Part shown: piece by piece, positions 6,678 to 55,603 of the stretch
How the letters are laid out: the number at the start of each line of letters is the position of its first letter
Position numbering within the stretch: the stretch's first letter is position 1
From: a virus
Lineage: Duplodnaviria; Heunggongvirae; Uroviricota; Caudoviricetes
Reading direction: 5' to 3' (one strand)
DNA length: 64,000 nucleotides
Virus record (IMG/VR): IMGVR_UViG_2703718815_000003
Translations under genes and position numbers: made by a program
Notes under the pieces: model-generated
Databases searched by the model: none
Seen by the model: the letters and a program-made list of their open reading frames with translations, nothing else
What the model was told of the DNA's origin: nothing

Positions 6678-8711
6678 TTACTTAACTTGGTGGCCTGGTT
6701 TAGCACCAGCATCCGGGCTTAACAGGAAGATATCTTTTCCGCCAGGGCCAGCAGCCATCACCATGCCTTCGGAGATACCGAAGCGCATTTTACGCGGTGC
6801 CAGGTTAGCCACCATAATGGTGTGACGACCAATCAGTGCCTGTGGGTCTGGATAAGCAGAACGGATGCCTGAGAAGACATTGCGTTTTTCACCGCCGAGA
6901 TCCAGCGTCAGGCGCAGCAGTTTGTCAGAACCTTCAACAAACTCTGCGTTTTCGATCAGTGCCACGCGCAGGTCAACTTTGGCAAAGTCGTCAAAGGTGA
7001 TGGTTTCCTGAATCGGGTCGTCTGCCAGCGGGCCAGTAACTGGCGCGGCAGCTGCTTTCACTTCTTCTTTGGATGCTTCCACCAGTGCTTCAACCTGCTT
7101 CATATCGATGCGGTTATACAGTGCCTTGAACGGATTCACTTTATGGCCCAGCAGCGGTTGCTGGATACCATCCCAGGTCAGTTCTGTATTCAGGAATGCT
7201 TCTGCACGTTCAGTCAGTTTCGGCAGTACCGGCTTCAGGTACGTCATCAGCACGCGGAACAGGTTAATGCCCATAGAGCAAATCGCCTGCAGATCGGCAT
7301 CGCGTCCTTCCTGCTTCGCCACCACCCACGGAGCCTGTTCATCGACATAGCGGTTAGCCAGGTCAGCCAATGCCATGATTTCACGGATAGCTTTACCAAA
7401 TTCACGGCTTTCCCATGCTTCGCCAATCACTTCAGCGGCATCAGTAAAGGTTTTGTACAGTTGCGGGTCAGCCAGTTCGCTTGCCAGCACGCCGTCAAAA
7501 CGCTTGTTGATAAAGCCTGCATTACGGGAGGCCAGGTTAACCACTTTGTTCACGATATCGGCATTCACGCGCTGAACGAAATCCTCCAGGTTGAGATCGA
7601 TATCATCAATGCGCGAAGAGAGTTTCGCAGTGTAGTAGTAACGCAGGCTGTCAGCGTCAAAATGATTCAGCCAGGTGCTGGCTTTAATAAAGGTGCCGCG
7701 AGACTTGGACATCTTCGCGCCGTTCACCGTCACATAGCCGTGAACAAACAGGTTGGTCGGCTTGCGGAAGTTGCTGCCTTCCAGCATGGCAGGCCAGAAC
7801 AGGCTGTGGAAGTAAACAATATCTTTACCGATGAAGTGGTACAGCTCGGCGGTGGAGTCTTTCTTCCAGTATTCATCGAAGCTGGTGGTATCGCCGCGCT
7901 TGTCGCACAGATTCTTGAAGGAACCCATGTAGCCAATCGGCGCGTCCAGCCAGACGTAGAAATATTTGCCCGGCGCGTTCGGAATTTCAAAACCGAAGTA
8001 GGGCGCATCTCGGGAGATATCCCACTGTTGCAGGCCGGATTCAAACCATTCCTGCATTTTGTTCGCCACCTGCTCCTGCAACGCGCCGCTGCGGGTCCAT
8101 GCCTGCAACATTTCGCTGAAAGAAGGCAGATCAAAGAAGAAGTGTTCGGAATCACGCATTACCGGGGTAGCGCCAGAAACCACCGATTTCGGCTCGATCA
8201 ATTCAGTCGGGCTATATGTTGCGCCGCAGACTTCACAGTTATCGCCGTATTGATCTGGCGCTTTACATTTCGGGCAGGTGCCTTTTACAAAACGATCCGG
8301 CAGGAACATGCCTTTTTCCGGGTCGTACAACTGAGAGATAGTGCGGTTTTTAATAAAACCGTTCTCTTTCAGGCGAGTATAGATAAGCTCAGACAACTGA
8401 CGGTTCTCTTCGCTGTGCGTCGAGTGATAGTTGTCATAGCTGATGTTAAAGCCTGCGAAATCAGTCTGGTGTTCCTGACTCATTTCGCCAATCATCTGCT
8501 CCGGTGTGATACCAAGCTGCTGTGCTTTCAGCATGATCGGCGTACCGTGGGCATCGTCGGCACAGATGAAATTAACCTCGTGGCCGCGCATTCGCTGGTA
8601 ACGAACCCAGACATCAGCCTGGATGTGCTCCAGCATATGGCCGAGGTGGATTGAGCCGTTAGCGTACGGCAGCGCGCACGTCACCAGAATTTTCTTCGCG
8701 ACTTGGGTCAT
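6678..8711 (-). CDS. metG: methionyl-tRNA synthetase
   Basis: Track ORF trimmed to ATG ([26 protein letters not shown]...); KMSKS motif (GAKMSKSRG); C-terminal tRNA-binding domain; enterobacterial-like, about 677 aa. Confidence 0.95.
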
Positions 8712-8868
8712 AGTAGGCATTACTTCTTTGTAGTGAAAAGGGGCTTGATAGTAACAAAATGGCCTTATGTCTGCCATGTGATAACAGCATTTCTCATAAA
8801 TGATTAAATGTCGTAGCTGGAGTACACTACAAGGCGACAATTGCGCAAATTAAAATAAAGGAGACGGG

Positions 8869-9969
8869 ATGAGCGAGTCCAAATCGCCGGATGCCCTGAG
8901 AGCAATGGTAGCCGGTACGCTGGCTAATTTTCAGCACCCAACCCTGAAACACAACCTGACTACGCTTAAAGCGTTACACCATGTTGCGTTGATGGATGAC
9001 ACACTGCATGTCGAACTAATCATGCCTTTCGTGTGGAATAAGCCTTTTGAAGACCTGAAAGAGCAATGTAGTGGTGATCTGCTCCGTATCACTGGCGCAA
9101 AGGCTATTGACTGGAAGCTGTCGTACAACATTGCCACGCTTAAGCGCGTCAAAAACCAACCAGGCATTAATGGCGTTAAGAACATTATCGCCGTCAGCTC
9201 AGGCAAGGGCGGCGTGGGTAAATCCTCCACGGCGGTAAACCTGGCACTGGCGTTGGCTGCTGAAGGTGCGAAAGTTGGTATTTTGGATGCCGATATCTAT
9301 GGTCCATCAATTCCAACCATGCTGGGCGCGGAAAACCAACGTCCAACCTCACCTGACGGTACTCACATGGCACCTATCATGTCTCATGGCCTGGCAACCA
9401 ACTCTATTGGTTATCTGGTCACCGACGACAATGCAATGGTGTGGCGTGGACCGATGGCGAGCAAGGCGTTAATGCAGATGTTGCAGGAAACATTGTGGCC
9501 TGATCTGGACTATCTTGTTCTCGATATGCCGCCGGGCACTGGTGATATTCAGTTGACGCTGGCGCAGAACATTCCTGTAACTGGTGCTGTTGTGGTAACT
9601 ACGCCGCAAGACATCGCGCTGATCGATGCGAAGAAAGGCATTGTGATGTTCGAAAAAGTCGAAGTGCCGGTACTTGGTATCGTCGAAAACATGAGTGTGC
9701 ATATTTGCAGTAACTGCGGTCATCACGAGCCAATTTTTGGCACCGGTGGCGCAGAGAAACTGGCCGAGAAATACAACACGCAGTTGTTAGGCCAAATGCC
9801 ACTTCATATCTCTCTTCGTGAAGATCTGGATAACGGAACACCAACCGTTATTAGTCGTCCAGATAGTGAATTTACGGCTATTTATCGTGACCTCGCAGAT
9901 CGCGTTGCTGCCCAAATGTATTGGCAAGGTGAAGTAATACCTGGCGAAATCGCATTCCGCGCAGTGTGA
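8869..9969 (+). CDS. apbC: Mrp/ApbC family Fe-S cluster carrier ATPase
   Basis: 366 aa; Walker A SGKGGVGKS; CxxC near C-terminus; divergent from metG as in enterobacterial chromosomes. Confidence 0.9.
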   Translation: MSESKSPDALRAMVAGTLANFQHPTLKHNLTTLKALHHVALMDDTLHVELIMPFVWNKPFEDLKEQCSGDLLRITGAKAIDWKLSYNIATLKRVKNQPGINGVKNIIAVSSGKGGVGKSSTAVNLALALAAEGAKVGILDADIYGPSIPTMLGAENQRPTSPDGTHMAPIMSHGLATNSIGYLVTDDNAMVWRGPMASKALMQMLQETLWPDLDYLVLDMPPGTGDIQLTLAQNIPVTGAVVVTTPQDIALIDAKKGIVMFEKVEVPVLGIVENMSVHICSNCGHHEPIFGTGGAEKLAEKYNTQLLGQMPLHISLREDLDNGTPTVISRPDSEFTAIYRDLADRVAAQMYWQGEVIPGEIAFRAV

Positions 9970-9970
9970 T

Positions 9971-9996
9971 AAAAAGGCGGTGCATTGCACCGCCTA
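9971..9996. terminator. hairpin terminator between convergent genes
   Basis: ggcggtgca tt gcaccgcc stem flanked by A-run. Confidence 0.5.
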
Positions 9997-34294: not shown

Positions 34295-36200
34295 AGCTGC
34301 GCCCCTCTTTAACTTCCAGCGTAATAGTTTCCCGGAACCATGACTTCATCTCTTTATGGGAGATAATCAGCACAGTACCTCGCTCGCGAGCTTTGGACTC
34401 CAGAATACCCATGAGGCGTTCAAGACCGGCTGTATCGAGTGCATCGTCAATTTCGTCGCCGATAAACAAATCGATGTTTTTACTCGCCCGGTTACTAACC
34501 AGATCCTGCAATGCCAAAGAACACGCAATGCGAACCTTCCGCTTCTCACCACCAGAGAGGGTCTGGAACGACTTACTTGAACCTTTCTTCTGCACACTAA
34601 TGTTGAATTTGTCGCGATACTCACCTTTTTTAGTGACATCCATCGTCGACCACTCAGCAGTAATATTCCCGTCAGACAACGTATTGAGATACTCGGCAGT
34701 GCGTGTATTCAGGAAAGGCGTAACAGACGTCAAAATATGAGAACGCACCCCGGCAGGAGAGTAGACCTGACGAGCTTTTTCCAATAGCAACGTTTGTTCC
34801 TGAATAGCCTTCAACTCATCTTTTAAGGACTTGAAGGTAGACTTACTGGATACCAAGTTATCTTCGTGTCTGGCGATAAGAGCAATAAACGGATTAATCT
34901 CTTTTGATATACGATCGACCTCAGTACGAGCACGAGTCACAAGAGACTCAATAGCAACAACCTCCTTCTCACGATGACGCAAAGATGAGAGTTGTTTCGT
35001 AAGCTCTTCAATCCGGGCAATGATAGCCGTTACATCAGGTGTCGTTTTAACAAGGGCAGACTCAATGCTTAACGCTTTCTCAAGATTCGTTTTGTGTTTA
35101 GCCATTGCCTCTGCAAGTGTCTTCGCCTGACCAATTTCCTGACGTGCTTGTTCAATGAAATTCTCCTTCACCGTTGATAGATCTTCTTCGCAGTAGGCTT
35201 TGCCACAAGTAGGGCATGGTGATCCTACTTTAGTACCAACCTCTTCTGCTTTGGTCTTAAAATTGCGCGCGCGGCTCATTGCATCAGCCTGACTATTTTC
35301 TGTAGCTTTGATGCTTGCCCGAATATCAGTTATCGCACCACGAACTTTGAGCAACTTGGCGTCATGTTCTTCTTTTGAGGCTAACTTTTTGCGCTCACTT
35401 TCGATTGCCTTCTCGGTATCACGTATCTGTTCGGGAAGAGTGCGGATCTCAAGTTCAACTTCCGTTAACTCAACTTCGGCACTGGCCAGCCCAGCCAGGG
35501 CATCGTCATAACGTTTAGAACGCTCTTGCTCCCATGATTCAGAGGAGGCTTTCGCTGACTCAATTTCTGACTGTGTTGCCTCAATGGTCGAGATTGTCGA
35601 CTCCAATTTGGTTTTAACCACATCCATACGTGCGGCAGCTGCATTAGCTCGCTCACGAGCAATAGCGTAGGCGCGTGTCAGTCTGTCAACGCCAGCGGCT
35701 TCTTCTACGATGGTTTTGAGGTTTTTGTCGGACATTCCAGGTAAATCTGGCATAGCTTCTTGGCTCGCATAGATGGAAGCCATGAAAACCTCTTTAGATG
35801 CACCGATCAGACGCTCGACGAACTCCTGCGTCAGCGCATCTTTGCCTTTCGTCATATCGCCATCTTCACCACGAACGATAAGACGATTTTTGAACTCTTT
35901 GTGTTTACGGTGACGAATGATTGCGTATCTCTTGCCTTCATCCTCGATGGTTACTGCAACACGACAGTTCTTTTCATGGTCGGTAGACAACACATCGTCA
36001 CCCTTCACACCATGAGCTGTTTCGCCATAAAGACACCACATCAGGCTATTCATTAGAGTTGACTTTCCAGAGCCATTACTTGATGCGGAACTATCATCAC
36101 TATTAACACCCTGAATAAGCACTAAACCACGCTGATCTAACTCGACCTCCGCGCTGGCGATAGCCATAAAATTCTCAACCTGGAGCTTTAAAAACTTCAT
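34284..36200 (-). CDS. SbcC/Rad50-like ATPase
   Basis: 638 aa; Walker A GSGKST; zinc hook CPTCG; long coiled coil; ABC signature LSGGEKRKV; Walker B GDEIDDALD. Confidence 0.8.
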   Translation of the reverse strand: MKFLKLQVENFMAIASAEVELDQRGLVLIQGVNSDDSSASSNGSGKSTLMNSLMWCLYGETAHGVKGDDVLSTDHEKNCRVAVTIEDEGKRYAIIRHRKHKEFKNRLIVRGEDGDMTKGKDALTQEFVERLIGASKEVFMASIYASQEAMPDLPGMSDKNLKTIVEEAAGVDRLTRAYAIARERANAAAARMDVVKTKLESTISTIEATQSEIESAKASSESWEQERSKRYDDALAGLASAEVELTEVELEIRTLPEQIRDTEKAIESERKKLASKEEHDAKLLKVRGAITDIRASIKATENSQADAMSRARNFKTKAEEVGTKVGSPCPTCGKAYCEEDLSTVKENFIEQARQEIGQAKTLAEAMAKHKTNLEKALSIESALVKTTPDVTAIIARIEELTKQLSSLRHREKEVVAIESLVTRARTEVDRISKEINPFIALIARHEDNLVSSKSTFKSLKDELKAIQEQTLLLEKARQVYSPAGVRSHILTSVTPFLNTRTAEYLNTLSDGNITAEWSTMDVTKKGEYRDKFNISVQKKGSSKSFQTLSGGEKRKVRIACSLALQDLVSNRASKNIDLFIGDEIDDALDTAGLERLMGILESKARERGTVLIISHKEMKSWFRETITLEVKEGRSYVV

Positions 36201-37769: not shown

Positions 37770-38414
37770 TTACAGCGCGTCAGTGGGCTTTTTACGCGCT
37801 GCGTTTATGCTTATGACGCCAGCTTTTGGACGTGGGTCAACAAGGTTAAGCTCTTCTTCGCTGTGGTATTCGAGGTCGAACTCACGTTTTACATGTCTGA
37901 TGTAGATTGCGGTGAGCAGGCTATCTTTGGTCAGAAAGTGTCCGTAGGATTTGCGGATCACTTCTTCTACTTTCTCGATTTTCTCACCACCCATACAGAG
38001 ATGATTAAACCGGCTGTGTTTCCGCAACATTTCGTCTACTGGGCCTGAGTAAACCTTGTCTACTTTCCCAAAACGGATGATTTTCCCTGTGTCTGCGGAT
38101 ACGAGGCAAATCAGCTTGTCTGGTGATAAACGATCTCGCCACGTCACACCTGAACGGAGTGTGTTGAAGTAGGGAGCATCCAATCCGATGATCGGTTTAC
38201 GAAATGCGAGTAATGGAACGTACCTGATGCAACTGTTTAAATGAAAATTCACACCAGCCTTATCAAGTTTAATTCTGGTTTCGTAGATCGGGCACTTCGC
38301 CGCTATACCGCAGATGTCACAAAGCAACTTCTGCTTATTCAGGTTGGAATTTGATTCGATAGTGTAGGAGCCGTCTTCAAGACGACGAACCCAGCGCGTG
38401 CGTTTTAGATCCAT
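37770..38414 (-). CDS. hypothetical protein (214 aa)
   Basis: Track ORF. Confidence 0.5.
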   Translation of the reverse strand: MDLKRTRWVRRLEDGSYTIESNSNLNKQKLLCDICGIAAKCPIYETRIKLDKAGVNFHLNSCIRYVPLLAFRKPIIGLDAPYFNTLRSGVTWRDRLSPDKLICLVSADTGKIIRFGKVDKVYSGPVDEMLRKHSRFNHLCMGGEKIEKVEEVIRKSYGHFLTKDSLLTAIYIRHVKREFDLEYHSEEELNLVDPRPKAGVISINAARKKPTDAL

Positions 38415-38494
38415 ATGTCATTTTTCTGTGATTGTTAGCCGAGGCAACGATAACCCACCAGGTGCGCCGAAGGTAGTAAATGCCTGTTTTAATT

Positions 38495-38580
38495 ATTCAC
38501 ATATCCACAGGATAGATCCTAATAAAGAGATCCATAGATAGATCCTTGTATAGATCAAATAAGATCCCCGATCGCTGTAA
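38495..38580. promoter_or_regulatory. origin-like region: DnaA-box-like site + GATC cluster
   Basis: atatccaca (8/9 to TTATCCACA) followed by 6 GATC sites in about 70 bp. Confidence 0.55.
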
Positions 38581-38610
38581 GCCGCGCCACGACTGGTCTG
38601 AAGCCATGTT

Positions 38611-38720
38611 CATGTATGCTGTCAGCGGTAATTGATAGTCTGTCAGCGGTTCACCGTATGCTGCCAACTGTTTTTGGTATTCTGTCAGCGGCAAATCAAG
38701 TATGCTGTCAGCGGTTGAAT
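38611..38720. repeat. iteron array upstream of repA (about 5 copies TATGCTGTCAGCGGT)
   Basis: Direct repeats, same orientation, ending about 15 nt before repA ATG. Confidence 0.75.
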
Positions 38721-38735
38721 GACAAAGGTGTCCAC

Positions 38736-39830
38736 ATGTCCACAAAAAATAAAAAAGGTAAAAATAACAAAGAAGTAGAAGATAATCTCGACAACTTTGA
38801 AGAAGGTTCCCTTGAATTGTACACAGGGGAACTTGTCCCTAATAGCAACAATACAGTCCAACCAATTGCGTTGATGCGGCTGGGATTGTTCGTGCCCACG
38901 CTCAAGGGGACAAAATACAGCAAGCGTAACAAGCCAAATGAGATCGATGCTTCAAAGGAGCTTGTTCAGCTCGAAGTAGCCCGTTCTGAAGGCTATTCCG
39001 ATATCAAGATAACCGGTCCTCGTCTCGACATGGATCATGATTTCAAAACGTGGGTGGGCGTTGTGCGTTCGCTGGCAGAATACGGCGAACCTAACGGTCG
39101 TGTCGAGTTAAGCATCACGAAATTTGCGAAGTTTTGTGGCTATCCATCGTCACAGATCCGCAAAACACTCCGCGACCGGCTTACAAACAGTCTTTTGAAG
39201 ATCATGCGTACAACTCTGTCTTTCCAGAGAACGTATGAAGAAAAGAACGTCGACGGCTCTAACAAGATCTCGCTTCTGATGGTGCACCTCATCAATAGCG
39301 TGGACTACAACGAGCAGAAAGATACGGTGGTGTTCTATGCAGAACCGAAGCTGGCCGAACTATATCGCTTTGACCATAAGGTTCTTTTGCAGTTAAAGGT
39401 TATCAATAAGCTACCACGCAAAGAAACAGCACAGGCTCTGTACACCTTCATCGAAAGTCTTCCAACCAAGCCTGCGCCGGTATCGCTTGCTCGATTGCGT
39501 GCGCGACTCAATTTGAGTAGCAGGAATGTCAGCTCGCAGAATCAGACTATACGCAACGGCTTAAAAGCTCTCCAAGATTTGGGTTATCTCGAATACAGCG
39601 AGATTAAGCGAGGGCGGTCGATCTATATCCAGATTCACAGCCGCAATCCAAAACTCAAAGTCGCACCGCCAAAACCTGAAGACATCGAACCCAAAAAACT
39701 AGATGAGAAAGCTGGGGAAATTGATGCCAAACAGAACATTATCAACAAGATAACCGAACTTTCGCAGAATTTGACGCCTGAAAATATCAAGATGATTGAG
39801 ATCCTTTCCAATAGTCTCAAACTGCTTTGA
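38736..39830 (+). CDS. repA: RepA-type iteron-binding replication initiator
   Basis: Track ORF trimmed to ATG (MSTKNKKGK...) with AAAGGTG RBS; 364 aa; flanked by iterons; motif NSNNTVQPIALMRLGLFVP. Confidence 0.7.
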   Translation: MSTKNKKGKNNKEVEDNLDNFEEGSLELYTGELVPNSNNTVQPIALMRLGLFVPTLKGTKYSKRNKPNEIDASKELVQLEVARSEGYSDIKITGPRLDMDHDFKTWVGVVRSLAEYGEPNGRVELSITKFAKFCGYPSSQIRKTLRDRLTNSLLKIMRTTLSFQRTYEEKNVDGSNKISLLMVHLINSVDYNEQKDTVVFYAEPKLAELYRFDHKVLLQLKVINKLPRKETAQALYTFIESLPTKPAPVSLARLRARLNLSSRNVSSQNQTIRNGLKALQDLGYLEYSEIKRGRSIYIQIHSRNPKLKVAPPKPEDIEPKKLDEKAGEIDAKQNIINKITELSQNLTPENIKMIEILSNSLKLL

Positions 39831-40365
39831 TATGCTGTCAGCGGTGAAATGTATGCTATCAGCGGCTATTTTTCTGAAAAGTATGCTGTAAACGGTTAAA
39901 TATATGCTACCAGCGGTATAGTGAGATGAACGTATGCTGTGGGCGGTAAATCATCTATCACCACTCAATGCTCTGTCATACCTCCCCAGTGGTTACTAAC
40001 CTCGAAGAGTGCATTCCATATAGGTTTGCGCTCACTAACATTCTATTGCTATTGCGCTGATTGCTTGTAGTGAAAGGCATTTATTGCCTGCTGCTCCCTG
40101 ATAGAACGTATGCTGTCAGCGGTGTTTTATTGAGGAATTTTTGTTTGGATATGCTATCAGCGGTAATTAATGGTATATGTCAGACCTTCGTATGCTGCCA
40201 GCGGTAATTTTGTTCTGGTTATACCCATACCGGTACACATTATTCATGCAATGTCTTAAGTATGCTGTCAGCGGTAAAAAATCGAGTAAAGTATGCTGTG
40301 AGCGGTGAGATAGACTCTCGATATGCTATCAGCGGTAGTTGATTGTGTATGCTGTCAGCGGTGAC
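39831..40365. repeat. iteron array downstream of repA (about 12 copies TATGCT(G/A)(T/C)(C/G)AGCGGT)
   Basis: Same 15-bp core as upstream array, irregular 15-35 bp spacing, same orientation. Confidence 0.75.
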
Positions 40366-40409
40366 GACTATGAAATATGACTGCGGAACGTGCCGCAGTC
40401 AGTTTGCAT

Positions 40410-40622
40410 TTAGTGTATTTTCTTTAACAGACCCCAAAGTGTTCCGGCTTTTGTAGTCAGTTTTCCTGTTTCTGGATCGTACATACGCCATTCACGCCGC
40501 TGGTGGACGATATACCCATCTTCACGTTCCAGACGCTCAAGAATGCCAGGCTGCTTGAAACCCTTAGCACGCCAGTAGCCGCTTGTTTTCTCGATTTCCA
40601 GACCTGCCAGTGTTAATGCCAT
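40410..40622 (-). CDS. hypothetical protein (70 aa)
   Basis: Track ORF; ATGA coupling. Confidence 0.4.
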   Translation of the reverse strand: MALTLAGLEIEKTSGYWRAKGFKQPGILERLEREDGYIVHQRREWRMYDPETGKLTTKAGTLWGLLKKIH

Positions 40623-40957
40623 TATCCAACCTCCTTGCAGTCATCGAAAAGGTAGCTTTGCTGAGAAGCGTGAACACCATAGAAGCCCTTGTATTTGTTG
40701 TATACGAAGTGGTCTTCTCCGACGCCGGTTAATTTGCCATTACGATTTGTGAGATATGGGGATGACAACACTCGATCGTCACGCACAACATAGAACTGGT
40801 CGCCGCTGTCTACGACCATCGCTCCATATGGTGCTTTTATGACGTCGGTAAGAGCGCCATTCTTAACGTCGGCTACAGACATTTCACACTGATAAACAGT
40901 GGTGTCGGCCACAACGATCGAAGAAAGGAACAACAGCGCGAATGGGATGGTCTTCAT
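40622..40957 (-). CDS. secreted protein with signal peptide (111 aa)
   Basis: N-terminal MKTIPFALLFLSSIVVA. Confidence 0.5.
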   Translation of the reverse strand: MKTIPFALLFLSSIVVADTTVYQCEMSVADVKNGALTDVIKAPYGAMVVDSGDQFYVVRDDRVLSSPYLTNRNGKLTGVGEDHFVYNKYKGFYGVHASQQSYLFDDCKEVG

Positions 40958-43148: not shown

Positions 43149-45488
43149 TTAATCTTCTAGTTCTTCTGTTGGTGATGTCTTCTCTCGTCGGTCATCTATC
43201 GTCTGTAAAGCCGCAATGATTTCAGCTAGTGGCTTCTCCCGATACATCTCGACGATCTGTGATTTGGTGTATTTCTTGTCACCAATTTCAACTCGCCCGC
43301 TGGCGTTCTTTGGCAGGTATCCTTCTTCCAGCATGTACTCGACGAGCGACTCGATAACGTCGAGGCCACGAGTAGGATCGAAGTAGAATTTCCAGGTGCA
43401 TTTGCCATACGGTGGTGCAACTTTGTTTTTGATGCACTCTGCGCCTACGTCCTGACCGATCTTCTCTTTCCCATCCTTCATCACCGATGCACCGAGACGG
43501 ATGCGCACAGAAGCGTAAAACTTCGGTGAATCGCCGCCTGGCGACGTAGTAGGGTCGCCAAACATTACACCGATTTTTGTGCGAACCTGATTCAAGAAGA
43601 TGATGCAGGCGTTGTATTTGCGTGCCCACAAAGCCAGAGTAGGGAAGTTCGCACTCGTCGCACGAGCCAGTGCCGTATTGTCGTTCATGTTCAGCTGATC
43701 TTTGTCTTTGGCAGTGCCTTCAGCCATCTTTTCGAACTTCTCGGCTTTGGAGTTCGGAACCATAGACGCAAGTGAGTCAGCCACGATACAGATAGGTGCT
43801 GATTCAGGAATAAGCTCTTCATCACGTACCAATTTAAGAATTGTGCCGATCAACTCTACAGAGTCTTCGAAGGTATCAGGCTGCTTGTATACCCACTGAC
43901 CGTCATCCTCATCTGCGTTCAGACCATTGGCGACAGCCAGGCCAACGTCAAAACTGTTTTCATGATCGAGGAATACCGCCAGACCATCTTGTTTTTGAGC
44001 GGAGATCATCGCTGCTGTTGCAAGGAATGTGTTGTGGCTGATAATCCCGTTAGACCAGAAAGAGTGTGTTTCCGGCATCGCTACGTCGAACGTTGGTGCT
44101 TCACCTTCCTCAATAGCCACGACTTCGTCGTAGAACAAGTTAGAGCCAATTACCGCTGCCAGTTGTGCAAACAGATGCTCGTTAAAACGATTCTTTCTGC
44201 CAATGAAGGAGACATAGATTTCTCGCAGTTTGTCTATTCCGACACGATCGCCGCGGCCAATAACGTGGTCTACCAGAGCGTAGTCTTCACGGGTGGTCTT
44301 GGTGAGCGACTCGTAGAGTGATTTCACTAAGCCGCTGATGTGCGGAACATAGCCTGAGTAAGTGCGGTCAAAACCAATGTCCCGTTTGGTTGCCACTGAT
44401 AAACGTGCCGGAGATTCGAAACCAATCGTTGACAGAAAAAGGTCGTAATTAGAGCCACTGAATGACAGCCGGTAATATGTATTTTCATAACCCGCGACGT
44501 GTTTTTCAGAGATAGTTGACGTAATCCCCAGATTCAGGAGCATGAGGCGAATTTGCTGTAGCAGCAGCCCACTCGCGCTCACAACCTCAATGCAGCGACC
44601 ATCATTGACGTGGCATTCCAGCTCAAAGTAGCCGCGAAGGAATGCAATTTGAGCCTCGCTATTGGCGCGACGCACACTCAACGGAACCTGCTTGCCAGCA
44701 GCTTTCTCATACTCCAGACCATATTCTTTAAAAAGCAGCGAACGCACCTCTTTGCTAAACAGCACATGGTCTTCCGAGCCGTTATGTTTTCTCGTAACTG
44801 GCATCTTGTCTGATACCAGCGAAATGAGGCGGTAGTACTCATCCTTGATGAAAGGATCTGTGTTAGAAAAATTCACTGAATTTTCAGAGGCCACGTATCC
44901 GTCAGCAATTAAATAGCCCATCAGTTTTGCGATATTGGCATCCAGGTGCTGATCGCCGAATTGATGTGTGCCAACCATTGAAGGAATCGTGTCGCCTACA
45001 CTGATTTTTTCAGCATGTCGCCAGACGACATTACCTAAGTCGTCAACCACACGGATTGGGTGACGGAACGTAGCCTCGATATAACCGCCTGATGCCAGCT
45101 TAATACGCTTGAATTTGCGACGGTTGTTCCATGTCAGGTGTGAGGTCTTCTCTATCACGCCATTTTCATTGATGAGTCCAACGTTATGCTCTACATCGCG
45201 AGTAGTGCATGTCGCTTTGTACCCTTCAATCTCAAACAACTCTTTCACTGTTACCATTCCACGCTCCGTCAGCAGCATGGTGTCTGCGGTAACACATTTC
45301 CCTGCACTTGGAGGACCGAATACTTCGACGATACGACCACATGGGAAGCCGCCATCGTAACGACCGGAAATAGCTTTGTTTAACGGTGGAAAGCCTGTAT
45401 CAATCCAATGAGTTACTTTCTGAATTTCGTCGTTGCTACCGATTTTCTTTTTCAGAGCAAGTGCCAGTGCGGATTTTCCTTTTGCCAT
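43149..45488 (-). CDS. recA: RecA-family recombinase interrupted by an intein (precursor 779 aa)
   Basis: N-extein ...GRIVEVFGPPSAGK then Cys; C-extein collinear with RecA (FLNQVRTKIGVMFGDPTTSPGGDSPKFYASVRI); exteins total about 357 aa. Confidence 0.85.
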   Translation of the reverse strand: MAKGKSALALALKKKIGSNDEIQKVTHWIDTGFPPLNKAISGRYDGGFPCGRIVEVFGPPSAGKCVTADTMLLTERGMVTVKELFEIEGYKATCTTRDVEHNVGLINENGVIEKTSHLTWNNRRKFKRIKLASGGYIEATFRHPIRVVDDLGNVVWRHAEKISVGDTIPSMVGTHQFGDQHLDANIAKLMGYLIADGYVASENSVNFSNTDPFIKDEYYRLISLVSDKMPVTRKHNGSEDHVLFSKEVRSLLFKEYGLEYEKAAGKQVPLSVRRANSEAQIAFLRGYFELECHVNDGRCIEVVSASGLLLQQIRLMLLNLGITSTISEKHVAGYENTYYRLSFSGSNYDLFLSTIGFESPARLSVATKRDIGFDRTYSGYVPHISGLVKSLYESLTKTTREDYALVDHVIGRGDRVGIDKLREIYVSFIGRKNRFNEHLFAQLAAVIGSNLFYDEVVAIEEGEAPTFDVAMPETHSFWSNGIISHNTFLATAAMISAQKQDGLAVFLDHENSFDVGLAVANGLNADEDDGQWVYKQPDTFEDSVELIGTILKLVRDEELIPESAPICIVADSLASMVPNSKAEKFEKMAEGTAKDKDQLNMNDNTALARATSANFPTLALWARKYNACIIFLNQVRTKIGVMFGDPTTSPGGDSPKFYASVRIRLGASVMKDGKEKIGQDVGAECIKNKVAPPYGKCTWKFYFDPTRGLDVIESLVEYMLEEGYLPKNASGRVEIGDKKYTKSQIVEMYREKPLAEIIAALQTIDDRREKTSPTEELED
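44031..45296 (-). mobile_element. intein with LAGLIDADG homing-endonuclease domain inserted in RecA P-loop
   Basis: About 422 aa between GK and T; starts Cys, ends His-Asn, +1 Thr; LMGYLIADGYV and FLRGYFELE motifs. Confidence 0.8.
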
Positions 45489-52163: not shown

Positions 52164-53399
52164 TTAACCAAATATTTTTTGAACAACTTCACGAGCCGCT
52201 TGCGCAGAAGCTGAAGGGAGTTTGTTAATGAAAGAACGCTCAATACCTGTCACAAAGTCGCCTCGCATCATTCCAATCTTGGCCGACAACAAAAGCTCAC
52301 GAGGCCCAATTGGCTGGCTGATAAGGTGTTCTTCATATCCATCGCGAACGATACCGGCAAACTTAACCATCTTTTCAGCGTATTCATCCACGATGCCGGC
52401 ATTTATCAACATGTTGATCTCTGCCTCTTTGCTCATGTATTTCACATTCGAAACGATGCCAAAACGTGAAAAGTTCGCGGCGTTCTGGATGTTTGTACCC
52501 TGGTACAAGCCGGTTTCATCACCAGAACCGTTTGTGTTGCCAGTGCCAATGAAAGCAAACCGTTCATGCGGAGTAATGCGACGCCATTCTGGAGTCGCCT
52601 CTTTGATGACCAACGCTTCACCTTCCAGCACTGGCTGATACACGCCAAGAATCTGTGGAAACGCAAAGTCGTATTCATCCGCGAGGTAAACCCAGCCATG
52701 CTTCATTGCGAGCGCAAGCAAGCCAGGCTCGAAATACGTAGAGCCATCACGCGCCAGAATTTGTCCCGTAACATGAGCCTCTTCCATTGATGCTGTATGT
52801 TGGGCACGGATTAACGGACGATTGAGCAAAGCACATAGTTGTGTAGGCAATGAAGATTTGCCTGTTCCTGCATGACCCCACAAATAGCCAGGTATGCCAA
52901 GTTCAAGCATCATGAAAATGTCTTTGATCAGTTCGAAGTCGCCATATACGTATCCCTTCTTCACTTCTGGAACGAACTCTGGAAACGGCGTATTGACGTT
53001 GACGCTAACCATGAGCGGCGTCCCACGTTTTGTTCCGAGTTCTTTCACCGTTACATTTAGCAGTTCGTGAGCTGCGACCAGATCTGTCTTGTACTCAACT
53101 GTGCCTGTGTAGCCTGGGCTACTGGTCACGCCAGATGATTTGGCCATTTCGCTTTTTTGCTCGGCACGTTTAGCTTGAATTGCATCAAGTGCCTTTTTCG
53201 ATAGCGTTGGCTCATCTGGAAACTGTGTTGTGTACATTTTCAGTACGGTGTCAGGATCGGCATCTTTTACTGACTCAGGAATGCCCTCGCAATTACCATT
53301 GGCTACATGGGACTTAAAATAGTGAAATGATTTTCCGCACCACTTGCAAACAAGGTAATCAGAAGGATTTTTTTCATTTTGCAGTGCAGTAGTAGTCAT
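52164..53399 (-). CDS. AAA+ ATPase, CobS/MoxR-like
   Basis: 411 aa; Walker A GHAGTGKSS; Walker B-like VYLADEYD; N-terminal CKWCGKSFHY Zn-finger-like. Confidence 0.6.
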   Translation of the reverse strand: MTTTALQNEKNPSDYLVCKWCGKSFHYFKSHVANGNCEGIPESVKDADPDTVLKMYTTQFPDEPTLSKKALDAIQAKRAEQKSEMAKSSGVTSSPGYTGTVEYKTDLVAAHELLNVTVKELGTKRGTPLMVSVNVNTPFPEFVPEVKKGYVYGDFELIKDIFMMLELGIPGYLWGHAGTGKSSLPTQLCALLNRPLIRAQHTASMEEAHVTGQILARDGSTYFEPGLLALAMKHGWVYLADEYDFAFPQILGVYQPVLEGEALVIKEATPEWRRITPHERFAFIGTGNTNGSGDETGLYQGTNIQNAANFSRFGIVSNVKYMSKEAEINMLINAGIVDEYAEKMVKFAGIVRDGYEEHLISQPIGPRELLLSAKIGMMRGDFVTGIERSFINKLPSASAQAAREVVQKIFG

Positions 53400-53455
53400 G
53401 CGTTTTTCCTTTGTTTTCTAATGAGCGTTCAACTTCTTATATAAATATATCATTA

Positions 53456-53479
53456 TCTATCGTAAGTGGTTACTTATCG
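53456..53479. promoter_or_regulatory. class II palindromic motif
   Basis: ctatcgtaagtggttacttatcg. Confidence 0.45.
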
Positions 53480-53494
53480 TTAAGGCTGTTTTGT

Positions 53495-55603
53495 TCACTT
53501 TAAAATGATACGAGATAGTTCAGTAACTACAGATGAACCAAGACTATCAACGCTCGTTACCAGGGCATGATTTGAGTAAAATCTCTCCGGTGCATCAGTC
53601 ATGATGCCAATTGCCATCAAATCAATGTCAGTCTGCGTTTCAATTTGCTTCGCAACTGAACGCAAATGAGCGTCAAAACCTCTCCCAACAGCCCACGGCG
53701 CGCCATCACTCAGAACAAGCATGATCTTCCTGTCCTCCAAGCGACCGGAAAATAACGATGCAAGGCTGGCTATGCTTTCACCATCCACGTTATTAAGAAG
53801 TGGGAATGTGTAGCCTACGCACCCCATACGTGAGCGAACTTCGCGAGAATTTGCTTTTTCATTCCAATTTTTGATGATAGGTAGCATTAAAGATTCAAAG
53901 CGAGAGAACTCATATTTGATAGCCTTAAGTTCTCCTGCTGCCATATGACTGCCAAATGTAGTGAAGCCGGTGATAATGTTGGGAACATTTATTCGATCAA
54001 GTGCATCGGCGATGGTATATGCACTTGCAAGAGCTAGTTTTATCGTTTCGCCACTCATTGAACCCGATAAATCAATCACTTGTTGAACACAGGCGTTAAC
54101 GGCTTTAGATTCTTCTTTTTTACGAAACACGCGATCATCATTCATTGTTAATCTGTAGATACTTGAACCATGAATGCGCCCCCGACGCTGGCCAGGTATA
54201 AACTGAACTCTGTTTCTGCTTGCTATTGCACGTTCCAGGTCTTTTGCCAGCGTCGACGAAACACCTGACGAAAGGTGCTTTTCAATATATTTGTCGAAGA
54301 GTTGGTTGCCTTCAGGAACGATGCGATAACGGCTGATTGGATATCCACCTAAATCAATATCGGAGAATGTTTTAATAAGCCGTTTGATATGGGCTTCTGC
54401 CTGATCAATCGAGCCGATGAAGTCGTATGAGCGATTGTATGGCCTGTATTCGCTTTTCGAGCTTTCTGTTAACTCGCTTTTAATCGTTTCGGATAGCGCA
54501 TCTTCTGTCATGCCTCCGACTTCATCTTCCATGCTATCCAACTCCTCTAAAGCCTCTTCCAGACTCATTTTTGACGGAGTTGGAATGTCTGAAGAGCCGT
54601 CTTCTGTCGTTTTTCTTTTTTCGTGGTCAGCGGTTAATGATTCTGACGCCGCGTTATCAGAAGCATCAGAATCTGATACCGCTTTATCATTTTCTGTATC
54701 ATCGAATATTGTTTCTGATGATTCAGGATTATCTGAATCATCACTGTCGTTATTATCATTTTTGTGCTTACTATGTGACTCTGATTTAATAGATTTGTGA
54801 TTATCTAACGATGAGGGTGTCTCATGATCTTCGTTGTCTTCATTGTTTTCTCCAGAGGCATCCGTCTGGTCAGCGTCTGAAGGATCGGAAGTTTTTCCCG
54901 GAGCTGACTCCTTACCTTTGCTTTCACTTTCAGTGTCTTTGAGGATCTTAGCTATGGTCGCAGCCACCTTTACACAATCCTCGGTGCAAGACATGTTACG
55001 CACGGCCACATCGATACCATGTTCTTTTAATAATGAAATTGGTTTCTCAATGACAGGCCAATATTCATCCATGAAATCTACGAACGGTGCTTGGCCATCC
55101 CAGGCTCTTACAACCGGACAGAGAAAGAAGTTTAGAACAAGCGCGCGCTGATCTTTGCCACAATAAGCAATAGCCTCTGAAGCCTTTGGTTTAAAGACTT
55201 TTTCGATTATAAGGCGCTGAGTTGCCATCAGATTACGTCCTGTTCCGTTAAAGACCTGACCCATTTTTCGCTCGATGAACACGTCTTCTAAGGCATTCCA
55301 TAGCGACCAGGAAGGAACGCGTCCTTTTTCTCTCATTTTGTTGGACACACGAATATCGGTAAACAAAATGTGAGCAACCTCATGATCGAGAAATCCGCGC
55401 ACAGCATTCATCAATGCCGGTGTTGCGTTATCCGGGATTGATGGGATGTTTACGAGAATTGGCTCTCCATCATCGTTATAGCGTACATAAGCGTCGTCCC
55501 CTCGTTCTGCAACAGGGATGTTTTTACCTGAAAGGAGAGCGACTACTCGTTTTACACTGTCACGGAAGTCCTGAACCTCTTTGATGGAACGTTTTTTAGA
55601 CAT
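53495..55603 (-). CDS. VWA-domain protein, CobT-like, with long acidic S/D/E-rich linker
   Basis: 702 aa; C-terminal MIDAS DLSGSMSG; about 150-aa acidic low-complexity middle region. Confidence 0.65.
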   Translation of the reverse strand: MSKKRSIKEVQDFRDSVKRVVALLSGKNIPVAERGDDAYVRYNDDGEPILVNIPSIPDNATPALMNAVRGFLDHEVAHILFTDIRVSNKMREKGRVPSWSLWNALEDVFIERKMGQVFNGTGRNLMATQRLIIEKVFKPKASEAIAYCGKDQRALVLNFFLCPVVRAWDGQAPFVDFMDEYWPVIEKPISLLKEHGIDVAVRNMSCTEDCVKVAATIAKILKDTESESKGKESAPGKTSDPSDADQTDASGENNEDNEDHETPSSLDNHKSIKSESHSKHKNDNNDSDDSDNPESSETIFDDTENDKAVSDSDASDNAASESLTADHEKRKTTEDGSSDIPTPSKMSLEEALEELDSMEDEVGGMTEDALSETIKSELTESSKSEYRPYNRSYDFIGSIDQAEAHIKRLIKTFSDIDLGGYPISRYRIVPEGNQLFDKYIEKHLSSGVSSTLAKDLERAIASRNRVQFIPGQRRGRIHGSSIYRLTMNDDRVFRKKEESKAVNACVQQVIDLSGSMSGETIKLALASAYTIADALDRINVPNIITGFTTFGSHMAAGELKAIKYEFSRFESLMLPIIKNWNEKANSREVRSRMGCVGYTFPLLNNVDGESIASLASLFSGRLEDRKIMLVLSDGAPWAVGRGFDAHLRSVAKQIETQTDIDLMAIGIMTDAPERFYSNHALVTSVDSLGSSVVTELSRIILK

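Follow-up and report, generated by a model that had tools for sequence, protein, structure and literature searches.

A P1/RepFIB-family repA locus, the probable plasmid replicon of an SSU5-supergroup phage-plasmid

Described relatives of the replicon

The plasmid replicon of bacteriophage P1 (record AF234172) is made up, in order, of a double DnaA site, five Dam sites, five incC iterons spaced at 21 bp, the initiator gene repA and the incA iterons, with the promoter PrepA embedded in the last three incC iterons. A similar layout, in which a DnaA site and origin iterons stand upstream of rep and control iterons downstream, is found in the RepFIB replicons of P307, F and pO157, whose backbone is that of a conjugative plasmid and not of a phage. 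Here we describe a locus with these parts at 38.49–40.40 kb of a 64,000-nucleotide stretch of Caudoviricetes DNA (IMG/VR record IMGVR_UViG_2703718815_000003), referred to below as the window. In its parts list and its homology the locus corresponds to P1 oriR-repA-incA and to RepFIB, and it is very probably the plasmid-mode replicon of a temperate phage-plasmid, which keeps its prophage as a low-copy circle.

Experiments on a FIB replicon have assigned the upstream iterons to the origin, while the downstream block alone, but not the upstream one, displaces the plasmid; the FIB replicon of the F plasmid is itself partly defective (PMC11983097). Replication of P1 requires DnaA, HU, IHF and DnaK/J/GrpE, and a second array of DnaA boxes has been reported on the repA side of its iterons (PMC4980987). 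Closer to the present element, the replicon of SSU5, pHCM2 and pMT1 occupies the same backbone position, between the same 214-aa upstream and 70-aa downstream genes. For IncpKPHS1 of Klebsiella, the published description gives ‘four iterons 48-218 bp downstream of repA’ and assigns to RepA ‘no known domain’ (Wang et al. 2019; PMC6735626). A Klebsiella plasmid whose repA is more than 96% identical in nucleotide sequence to that of pKPHS1 was introduced into E. coli TOP10 by electroporation and became established there (PMC6735626).

The replicon described here is not a discovery: RefSeq already has it annotated, the literature types it as IncFIB, and it is carried by a known phage-plasmid group. 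Typing tools class the replicases of the SSU5 group as IncFIB, and the RepA of the window is of the pECOH89/p09EL50 type to which they give that name. The RepA of pECOH89 has been reported to be identical to that of p09EL50 and 48% identical to the SSU5-type RepA of pLF82 (PMC3999498).

Iterons, initiator gene and origin core

A first-pass annotation, made from the sequence alone, had proposed a P1-type replicon at 38490-40365, with about 17 copies of a 15-bp direct repeat, about five upstream and about 12 downstream of a 364-aa initiator-like open reading frame. These coordinates frame the feature correctly and the counts proved to be exact. Allowing up to three mismatches, the repeat TATGCTGTCAGCGGT has 20 matches in the window, against 1.47 ± 1.29 expected; the largest number obtained with a shuffled sequence was 5, and none of 100 shuffles reached 20. 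Seventeen of the 20 matches fall at 38615-40362, every one of them on the + strand, and they divide into five copies upstream and 12 downstream of the reading frame.

The five origin iterons are spaced at 21, 21, 21 and 23 bp, compared with 21, 21, 21 and 22 bp for the five incC iterons of P1. The first control iteron begins at the base immediately after the repA stop codon (39831), one base later than in P1, where the final base of the stop codon is the first of incA. The distal control copies follow one another at intervals of 41, 41, 70, 31, 30 and 26 bp. Whereas P1 has nine control iterons in one array (3 direct, 6 inverted), the 12 copies of the window are all direct and form two sub-arrays. 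The repeat sequence itself also differs between the systems, being TATGCTGTCAGCGGT in the window, GATGTGTGCTGGAGGGAAA in P1, of the ATAAGCTGTAGTGAG type in RepFIB and (A/T)(A/T)CCACTGTAG(A/T)GAG in SSU5. Furthermore, the downstream iterons of RepFIB-type loci are mostly inverted, and the downstream array of SSU5 is direct and then inverted.

The 364-aa reading frame is repA. Its start is preceded by AAAGGTG at 38724-38730 and is the one given in the PhiR41_1 phage record (ATG at 38736), whereas the RefSeq/PGAP annotation begins the gene at 38616, inside iteron 1, to give a protein of 404 aa. The shorter form appears to be right because, in the relative pKSB1_9A_3, the frame is open for just 3 codons 5′ of the aligned repA start; the RefSeq start is thus probably wrong, lying 40 codons too far upstream.

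The check proposed with the first-pass annotation, a hidden Markov model search of this protein against Rep families, was carried out with the two Pfam families of the Rep_3 (RepE-class) superfamily, PF01051 and PF21205. RepA matched Rep3_N over residues 118-239 with 37.5 bits, above the cut-off of 22.4, and Rep3_N was likewise matched by all six aligned relatives, including P1 RepA, which scored just above the threshold. RepA also matched PHROG 775 (E = 4.6e-133). In tblastn searches of phage records the protein is 43.5% identical to P1/P7 RepA over residues 32-309 (E = 2e-64) and 48% identical to SSU5 RepA. Homologues occur in more than 5,000 plasmid records, with RepFIB as the closest large protein family (47-50% identity to classic RepFIB RepA over about 300 residues). 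By sequence, then, RepA belongs to the P1/RepFIB branch of the Rep_3 initiators; P1 RepA itself was reportedly placed in the RepE class by Sharma and co-workers in 2004 (listed in PMC4980987). A scan of NCBIfam with RepA returned no family.

At 364 aa, RepA is longer than the 286-aa protein of P1, with extensions at both the N- and the C-terminus. The C-terminal one, about 55 residues that are absent from P1 RepA (residues 310-364, encoded at 39665-39830), consists of a linker rich in Pro, Glu and Lys followed by a conserved amphipathic helix, LTPENIK.IEIL.N.LKLL. An equivalent tail is present in SSU5 RepA.

The origin core resembles that of P1 closely. The two loci have the same parts in the same order, and the core composed of DnaA boxes, GATC sites and spacer can be aligned base by base. 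The DnaA-box-like site noticed in the first pass is in fact a tandem pair of boxes; TTATTCACA is an exact match to TTWTNCACA and ATATCCACA has one mismatch. They form the outer edge of the origin and align with the annotated DnaA-binding site of P1 oriR. Just inside them lie the six GATC sites that had also been noted (38515-38573), one more than the five of P1, in the densest 70-bp cluster of GATC in the window (6, where other stretches of that length reach 3 at most). Five stand in (A/T)AGATC(C/A) heptamers and the sixth in CGATCG, and the heptamers pair one for one with those of P1. This geometry is common to most of the RepFIB-family loci surveyed, and the cluster is presumed to be the region of unwinding and of sequestration by SeqA. 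In the GC-rich spacer that follows, CCGCGCCACG.CTG is invariant in an alignment of the window, three relatives and P1.

The candidate repA promoter was placed by alignment with P1. Its two hexamers sit between iterons 3 and 4 and between iterons 4 and 5, the same junctions as in the annotated PrepA, and the TTG and the A...T positions are kept in relatives. The leader between iterons and repA is very short and lacks the clear right-hand DnaA boxes of P1. However, two tandem TGTCCACA repeats, each matching TTATCCACA at 7 of 9 positions, overlap the Shine-Dalgarno sequence and the start codon and are kept in relatives, and the first of them aligns with CTATCCACA of P1, which likewise lies between iterons and repA. 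These repeats are possible weak right-hand DnaA boxes, through which DnaA might also affect the translation or transcription of repA. A search of 38300-40700 against Rfam at E ≤ 1 returned no RNA family, and the base-composition profile of the sequence was uninformative.

Downstream of the last iteron, a hairpin separates the replicon from the convergent 70-aa gene at 40410-40622. The features are collected in Table 1.

Table 1. Features of the replicon, with positions in the window; the strand is left empty for features that are not assigned to one.
Feature	Position	Strand	Description
Two tandem DnaA boxes	38493-38509	+	TTATTCACA at 38493-38501; ATATCCACA at 38501-38509
Six GATC (Dam) sites	38512-38575		GATC at 38515-38573
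GC-rich spacer AGCCGCGCCACGACTGGTC	38580-38598		Between the GATC region and the iterons
Origin iteron array (incC equivalent)	38615-38715	+	Five direct copies, at 38615, 38636, 38657, 38678 and 38701
Candidate repA promoter	38674-38703	+	−35 TTGGTA at 38674-38679; 18-bp spacer; −10 AAGTAT at 38698-38703
Tandem TGTCCACA repeats	38728-38744	+	GTGTCCACA and ATGTCCACA; overlap the repA Shine-Dalgarno sequence and start codon
repA, 364 aa	38736-39830	+	Rep_3 (RepE-class) initiator superfamily, P1/RepFIB family
Proximal control iteron sub-array (incA equivalent)	39831-39947	+	Five direct copies
Non-iteron two-site element, (A)GTGGTYACTAAC	39984-40041	+	Two sites 39 bp apart in the gap of the control array
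Distal control iteron sub-array	40109-40362	+	Seven direct copies
Terminator-like hairpin, bidirectional	40378-40401		Inverted repeat with a 9-bp stem, called on both strands

Variation among relatives and a conserved non-iteron element

For comparison, 160 further loci with a RepA alignment were gathered and pooled with the earlier ones; 77 loci, with RepA 78-100% identical, make up the lineage of the window. Throughout these 77 the origin is rigid. The DnaA boxes lie at −122 and −114 from iteron 1 (also in relatives with RepA 80-87% identical), the GATC sites at −100, −86, −74, −62, −52 and −45, and the five origin iterons keep their 21, 21, 21 and 23 bp spacing. The first control iteron stands at +1 from the stop codon throughout the lineage, and the control array as a whole varies between 6 and 12 copies, always split by a gap of 73-192 bp. 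The P1/RepFIB model predicts just this combination, an origin that is rigid and a control array that can be tuned.

Part of this variation follows sublineages. The sublineages of E. coli and Cronobacter have the distal sub-array; the Klebsiella relatives lack it and have 5 upstream and 8-9 downstream iterons. The IncpKPHS1 type of Klebsiella belongs to the same lineage, with a RepA 85-87% identical to that of the window (about the same figure holds for the pKPHS1 lineage as a whole), an identical iteron core and identical origin geometry. In phage PhiR41_1 an 87-bp deletion between identical iterons (window 40261-40348) has removed three distal copies, leaving 9 control iterons where the window has 12, and the deletion is predicted to raise the copy number. 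Copy-number mutants linked to repA in a phage-plasmid are the subject of a 2026 preprint, which was set aside because its phage-plasmid belongs to an unrelated 49-kb family.

Outside the lineage the GATC geometry is found again, with at least 4 GATC sites in the corresponding interval of 43/65 loci from other lineages of the family and of 73/74 lineage loci. Control arrays with a majority of inverted copies, present in 45 of 57 loci of other lineages, were seen in none of 76 lineage loci. At least one inverted control copy was found in 56 of those 57. Moreover, across the wider family the iteron sequence shifts with the RepA lineage. SSU5 shares with the window the C-terminal RepA extension and a GTGGTYAC(A/T)AAC element with a 39-bp spacing between its sites, and differs in RepA, in its iteron and in possessing additional iterons far upstream. 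Taken together with the shared position on the backbone, the comparison with SSU5 implies a swap of replicon specificity on a common backbone.

The far-upstream iterons form a cluster 250-360 bp farther upstream than the origin iterons in SSU5 (locus L007, 1912-1999 and 2274-2396) and in Pantoea loci such as L051, and have no equivalent in the present lineage or in P1. In addition, the SSU5-type and Pantoea-type iterons (TATCCACTGTAG) embed near-consensus DnaA boxes.

The gap in the control array holds a second kind of conserved sequence, (A)GTGGTYACTAAC, which is not an iteron. Its first site, AGTGGTTACTAAC at 39988-40000, contains the palindrome GGTTACTAACC, and the second, at 40028-40039, is the degenerate GCGCTCACTAAC; the fullest form, GTTAGTGGTYACTAAC, was found in relatives. 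The block is kept in all relatives, while the adjoining intergenic DNA is about 49% identical. It was detected in 72 of 75 lineage loci, and the other ~6 kb of each locus gave no match. The Klebsiella loci have it after their last iteron, and in E. coli and Cronobacter the second iteron sub-array lies beyond it. SSU5 and pMT1 carry the element with the same site spacing (SSU5, L007, 3646-3700; also L008, 3290-3345, and L010, 3156-3204), and on Rahnella plasmids lacking a phage backbone it stands beside an SSU5-type repA. The left half reproduces, exactly inverted, the 5′ half of the SSU5-type iteron, from which the iteron of this lineage differs; the element stays constant while the iterons change between lineages.

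Three explanations of the element were tried, and none was adopted. As a hairpin or structured RNA it scored −5.4 kcal/mol in RNAalifold, supported by a single compensatory pair, and its stem is disrupted in the 92-93% sublineage. As a Tus/Ter site it agreed with the Ter core GTTGTAACTAA in 9 of 11 bases, but it departs at 2-3 positions that do not vary in any of the Ter sites of E. coli. A binding protein encoded by the phage backbone was weakened as an explanation by the Rahnella plasmids, where the neighbours are umuC and an SOS-peptidase gene and there are no phage flanks. We entertain, tentatively and at rather less than even chances, that (A)GTGGTYACTAAC is a functional site for a factor other than RepA in its iteron-binding mode; a host protein, an operator-style RepA dimer and a fork barrier are candidates. 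The inverted half-iteron, the constancy of the element and its passage with the replicon onto non-phage plasmids speak for this. If so, the element would add to the P1/RepFIB-type replicons of the SSU5 supergroup a regulatory input that is absent from the P1 model.

The 11-bp palindrome GGTTACTAACC recurs at 34490-34500, inside the SbcC-like gene, where ~0.015-0.03 exact copies would be expected by chance in 64 kb. This second copy may be a coincidence or a second site for the same factor.

Plasmid-mode function, alternatives and the host element

The reading as a replicon of the P1 oriR/incC-repA-incA kind is supported because the repeats, the DnaA and GATC sites, the homology of RepA and the base-by-base alignment of the origin all point to it. 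The DnaA boxes, GATC heptamers, GC-rich spacer, phased iterons, repA and second iteron array each match the annotated P1 oriR region, whose architecture the first-pass annotation had named; the label ‘P1-type’ is nevertheless too narrow, with RepFIB (47-50%) and SSU5 (48%) as close to this RepA as P1 or closer. From these comparisons we infer autonomous replication, binding of RepA to the iterons, dependence on Dam and SeqA, and handcuffing.

By analogy, RepA monomers, which in P1 are made from dimers by host DnaK/DnaJ/GrpE, would bind the five phased origin iterons. RepA, HU and host DnaA, the last at the two flanking boxes, would then jointly open the adjacent region of GATC heptamers, onto which the host DnaB helicase and replisome would be loaded. 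The six GATC sites would tie firing to Dam methylation, hemimethylated sites being sequestered by SeqA after each round, and the placement of the candidate promoter inside iterons 3-5 suggests that RepA represses its own synthesis. The twelve downstream iterons would act as the copy-control and incompatibility locus. RepA bound there would pair with origin-bound RepA, either in cis or on a sister plasmid (‘handcuffing’), and the iterons would also titrate the initiator, so that the origin is shut off as the copy number rises. In P1 and in FIB replicons such steps have been documented. Since its iteron differs from those of P1, RepFIB and SSU5, the replicon should represent a separate incompatibility specificity.

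The molecule on which the locus lies is consistent with such a function. The region is 98-100% identical to circular plasmids of about 110 kb from E. coli, E. albertii and Shigella, including p09EL50, and two entries submitted to databases as phages, PhiR41_1 and CMS-2020a, match it just as closely; the reference plasmid record shows genes for tail, tape-measure and capsid proteins on this molecule. The element is an SSU5-supergroup phage-plasmid, probably of the pSLy3 group, as judged from the DUF3927 and tellurite-resistance genes that are listed for pSLy3 and found here. Like P1, it keeps its prophage as a plasmid. The replicon was found in 119 of 5,426 complete E. coli genomes, at 185 places, all of them on plasmids and none chromosomal, and it is the sole replicon typed on the reference plasmid.

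Several observations weigh against this interpretation. RepA scored 13.0 bits for the C-terminal family Rep3_C/WH2, below the cut-off of 21.1, although P1 RepA (20.5) and SSU5 RepA (21.0) also fall just under it; conservation in the P1 alignment is highest in the region concerned, residues 226-300. The two-winged-helix fold of RepE, pi and pPS10 RepA was not confirmed for this protein either by structure searches or by a model. No credible match emerged when solved structures were searched with the RepA sequence or with a profile of six members (matches to glyoxalase at E ~0.1 were noise), and the single-sequence AlphaFold model was unusable, with a mean pLDDT of 38.2, so that the fold assigned to RepA is the one suggested by its family membership. 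The candidate promoter is a weak match, at 7 of 12 consensus positions, and a consensus scan at 9/12 found no promoter on the + strand upstream of repA. The control iterons are all direct, unlike those of P1, RepFIB and SSU5, so that the geometry of looping may differ; inverted control iterons are typical of the P1/RepFIB family and are not known to be required. Nothing in the P1 model corresponds to the conserved non-iteron element that lies within the control region. Unlike P1, in which parA-parB-parS follows directly after incA, the locus has no adjacent parAB, and what lies downstream are convergent small genes without an assigned function. Finally, no experiment on this type of replicon was found in the literature.

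The first-pass annotation had further listed DnaE, SSB, RecA, FEN and ligase as a phage-type replisome coexisting with the replicon. All five are present, the ligase being ATP-dependent and the SSB of the gp32 type, and the plasmid and lytic replicons of P1 are separate. By analogy, the replisome of the present element most likely serves lytic growth and not plasmid maintenance. It could be supposed instead that one origin works in two modes, the oriR opened by RepA being also the point of entry for the phage helicase and replisome in lytic growth, perhaps by way of the C-terminal extension of RepA. The ~55-residue tail, shared by this lineage and SSU5 and missing from P1, would fit such a role, and no lytic initiator like RepL of P1 was noticed in the annotation. 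The proposal is, however, pure inference. Classic RepFIB RepA proteins on non-phage plasmids align past residue 310, as far as 350, and the tail is thus not specific to phage-plasmids; moreover, the many genes of the element without an assigned function could include a lytic initiator. We regard a shared origin as unlikely.

Less probable still is that the replicon is an inactive relic, with the element maintained from another origin by its own DnaE, DnaB-like and primase genes. The element does encode much of a replisome, the need for this particular repA rests on homology, and the partial defect of the F-plasmid FIB replicon provides a precedent. Against this, repA is intact, and the origin geometry is strictly kept over the 77 loci, at RepA identities of 78-100%, while the filler has drifted to about 49% identity. 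Neither annotation nor typing gives the reference plasmid a second plasmid initiator. Likewise, the SSU5-type version of the module is also carried by ordinary plasmids without phage genes.

That the downstream arrays are a centromere-like partition site, or have some other non-replicative role, is the least probable of the alternatives, for although direct-repeat arrays near maintenance genes can be centromeres and this one is long (12 copies), bipartite and variable among relatives, its repeats share the sequence of the origin iterons and are thus presumably RepA sites, it starts at the repA stop codon as P1 incA does, the downstream block of the homologous FIB replicon is an incompatibility and control determinant (PMC11983097), and no parAB genes adjoin it, the ParA-like candidate partition ATPase of the reference plasmid being ~30 kb away and the parA/parB genes reported for pECOH89 lying elsewhere. 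The plasmid-mode replicon thus remains the preferred reading.

Around the replicon the window encodes nrdAB, thyA, DHFR and a Dam-like methylase, together with the replication and repair genes SbcCD, an intein-interrupted RecA, a flap endonuclease, the gp32-type SSB, DnaE and the ATP-dependent ligase. The RecA homologue (43149-45488, − strand) is split by an intein with a LAGLIDADG homing endonuclease; the gene matches Pfam RecA, Intein_splicing and LAGLIDADG_3, and its RefSeq label names the homing endonuclease only. Beside dnaE, a CobS-like AAA_5 ATPase is paired with a CobT-like VWA protein (52164-55603, − strand), a pairing that recurs in large phages. In the annotation of the reference plasmid, metG, encoding a full-length methionyl-tRNA synthetase, and apbC lie by an S24 (LexA/CI-type) peptidase gene at ~6943-10234.

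The fine anatomy of the replicon is better resolved here than in the literature searched, and two corrections follow. IncpKPHS1 has about 13-14 iterons and a recognisable Rep_3 domain, in place of the four iterons and no known domain of its description, and the RefSeq start of repA should probably be moved downstream by 40 codons. To a long-established model the locus adds two small points, a control array with only direct copies and the non-iteron element. The replicon itself maintains a phage-plasmid group present in roughly 2% of complete E. coli genomes, with members that carry CTX-M beta-lactamase genes (PMC3999498, PMC6735626). Its exact set of iterons would define incompatibility and is a natural target for plasmid-curing cassettes, for which the displacement of a FIB plasmid by the downstream iteron block alone provides a precedent (PMC11983097).

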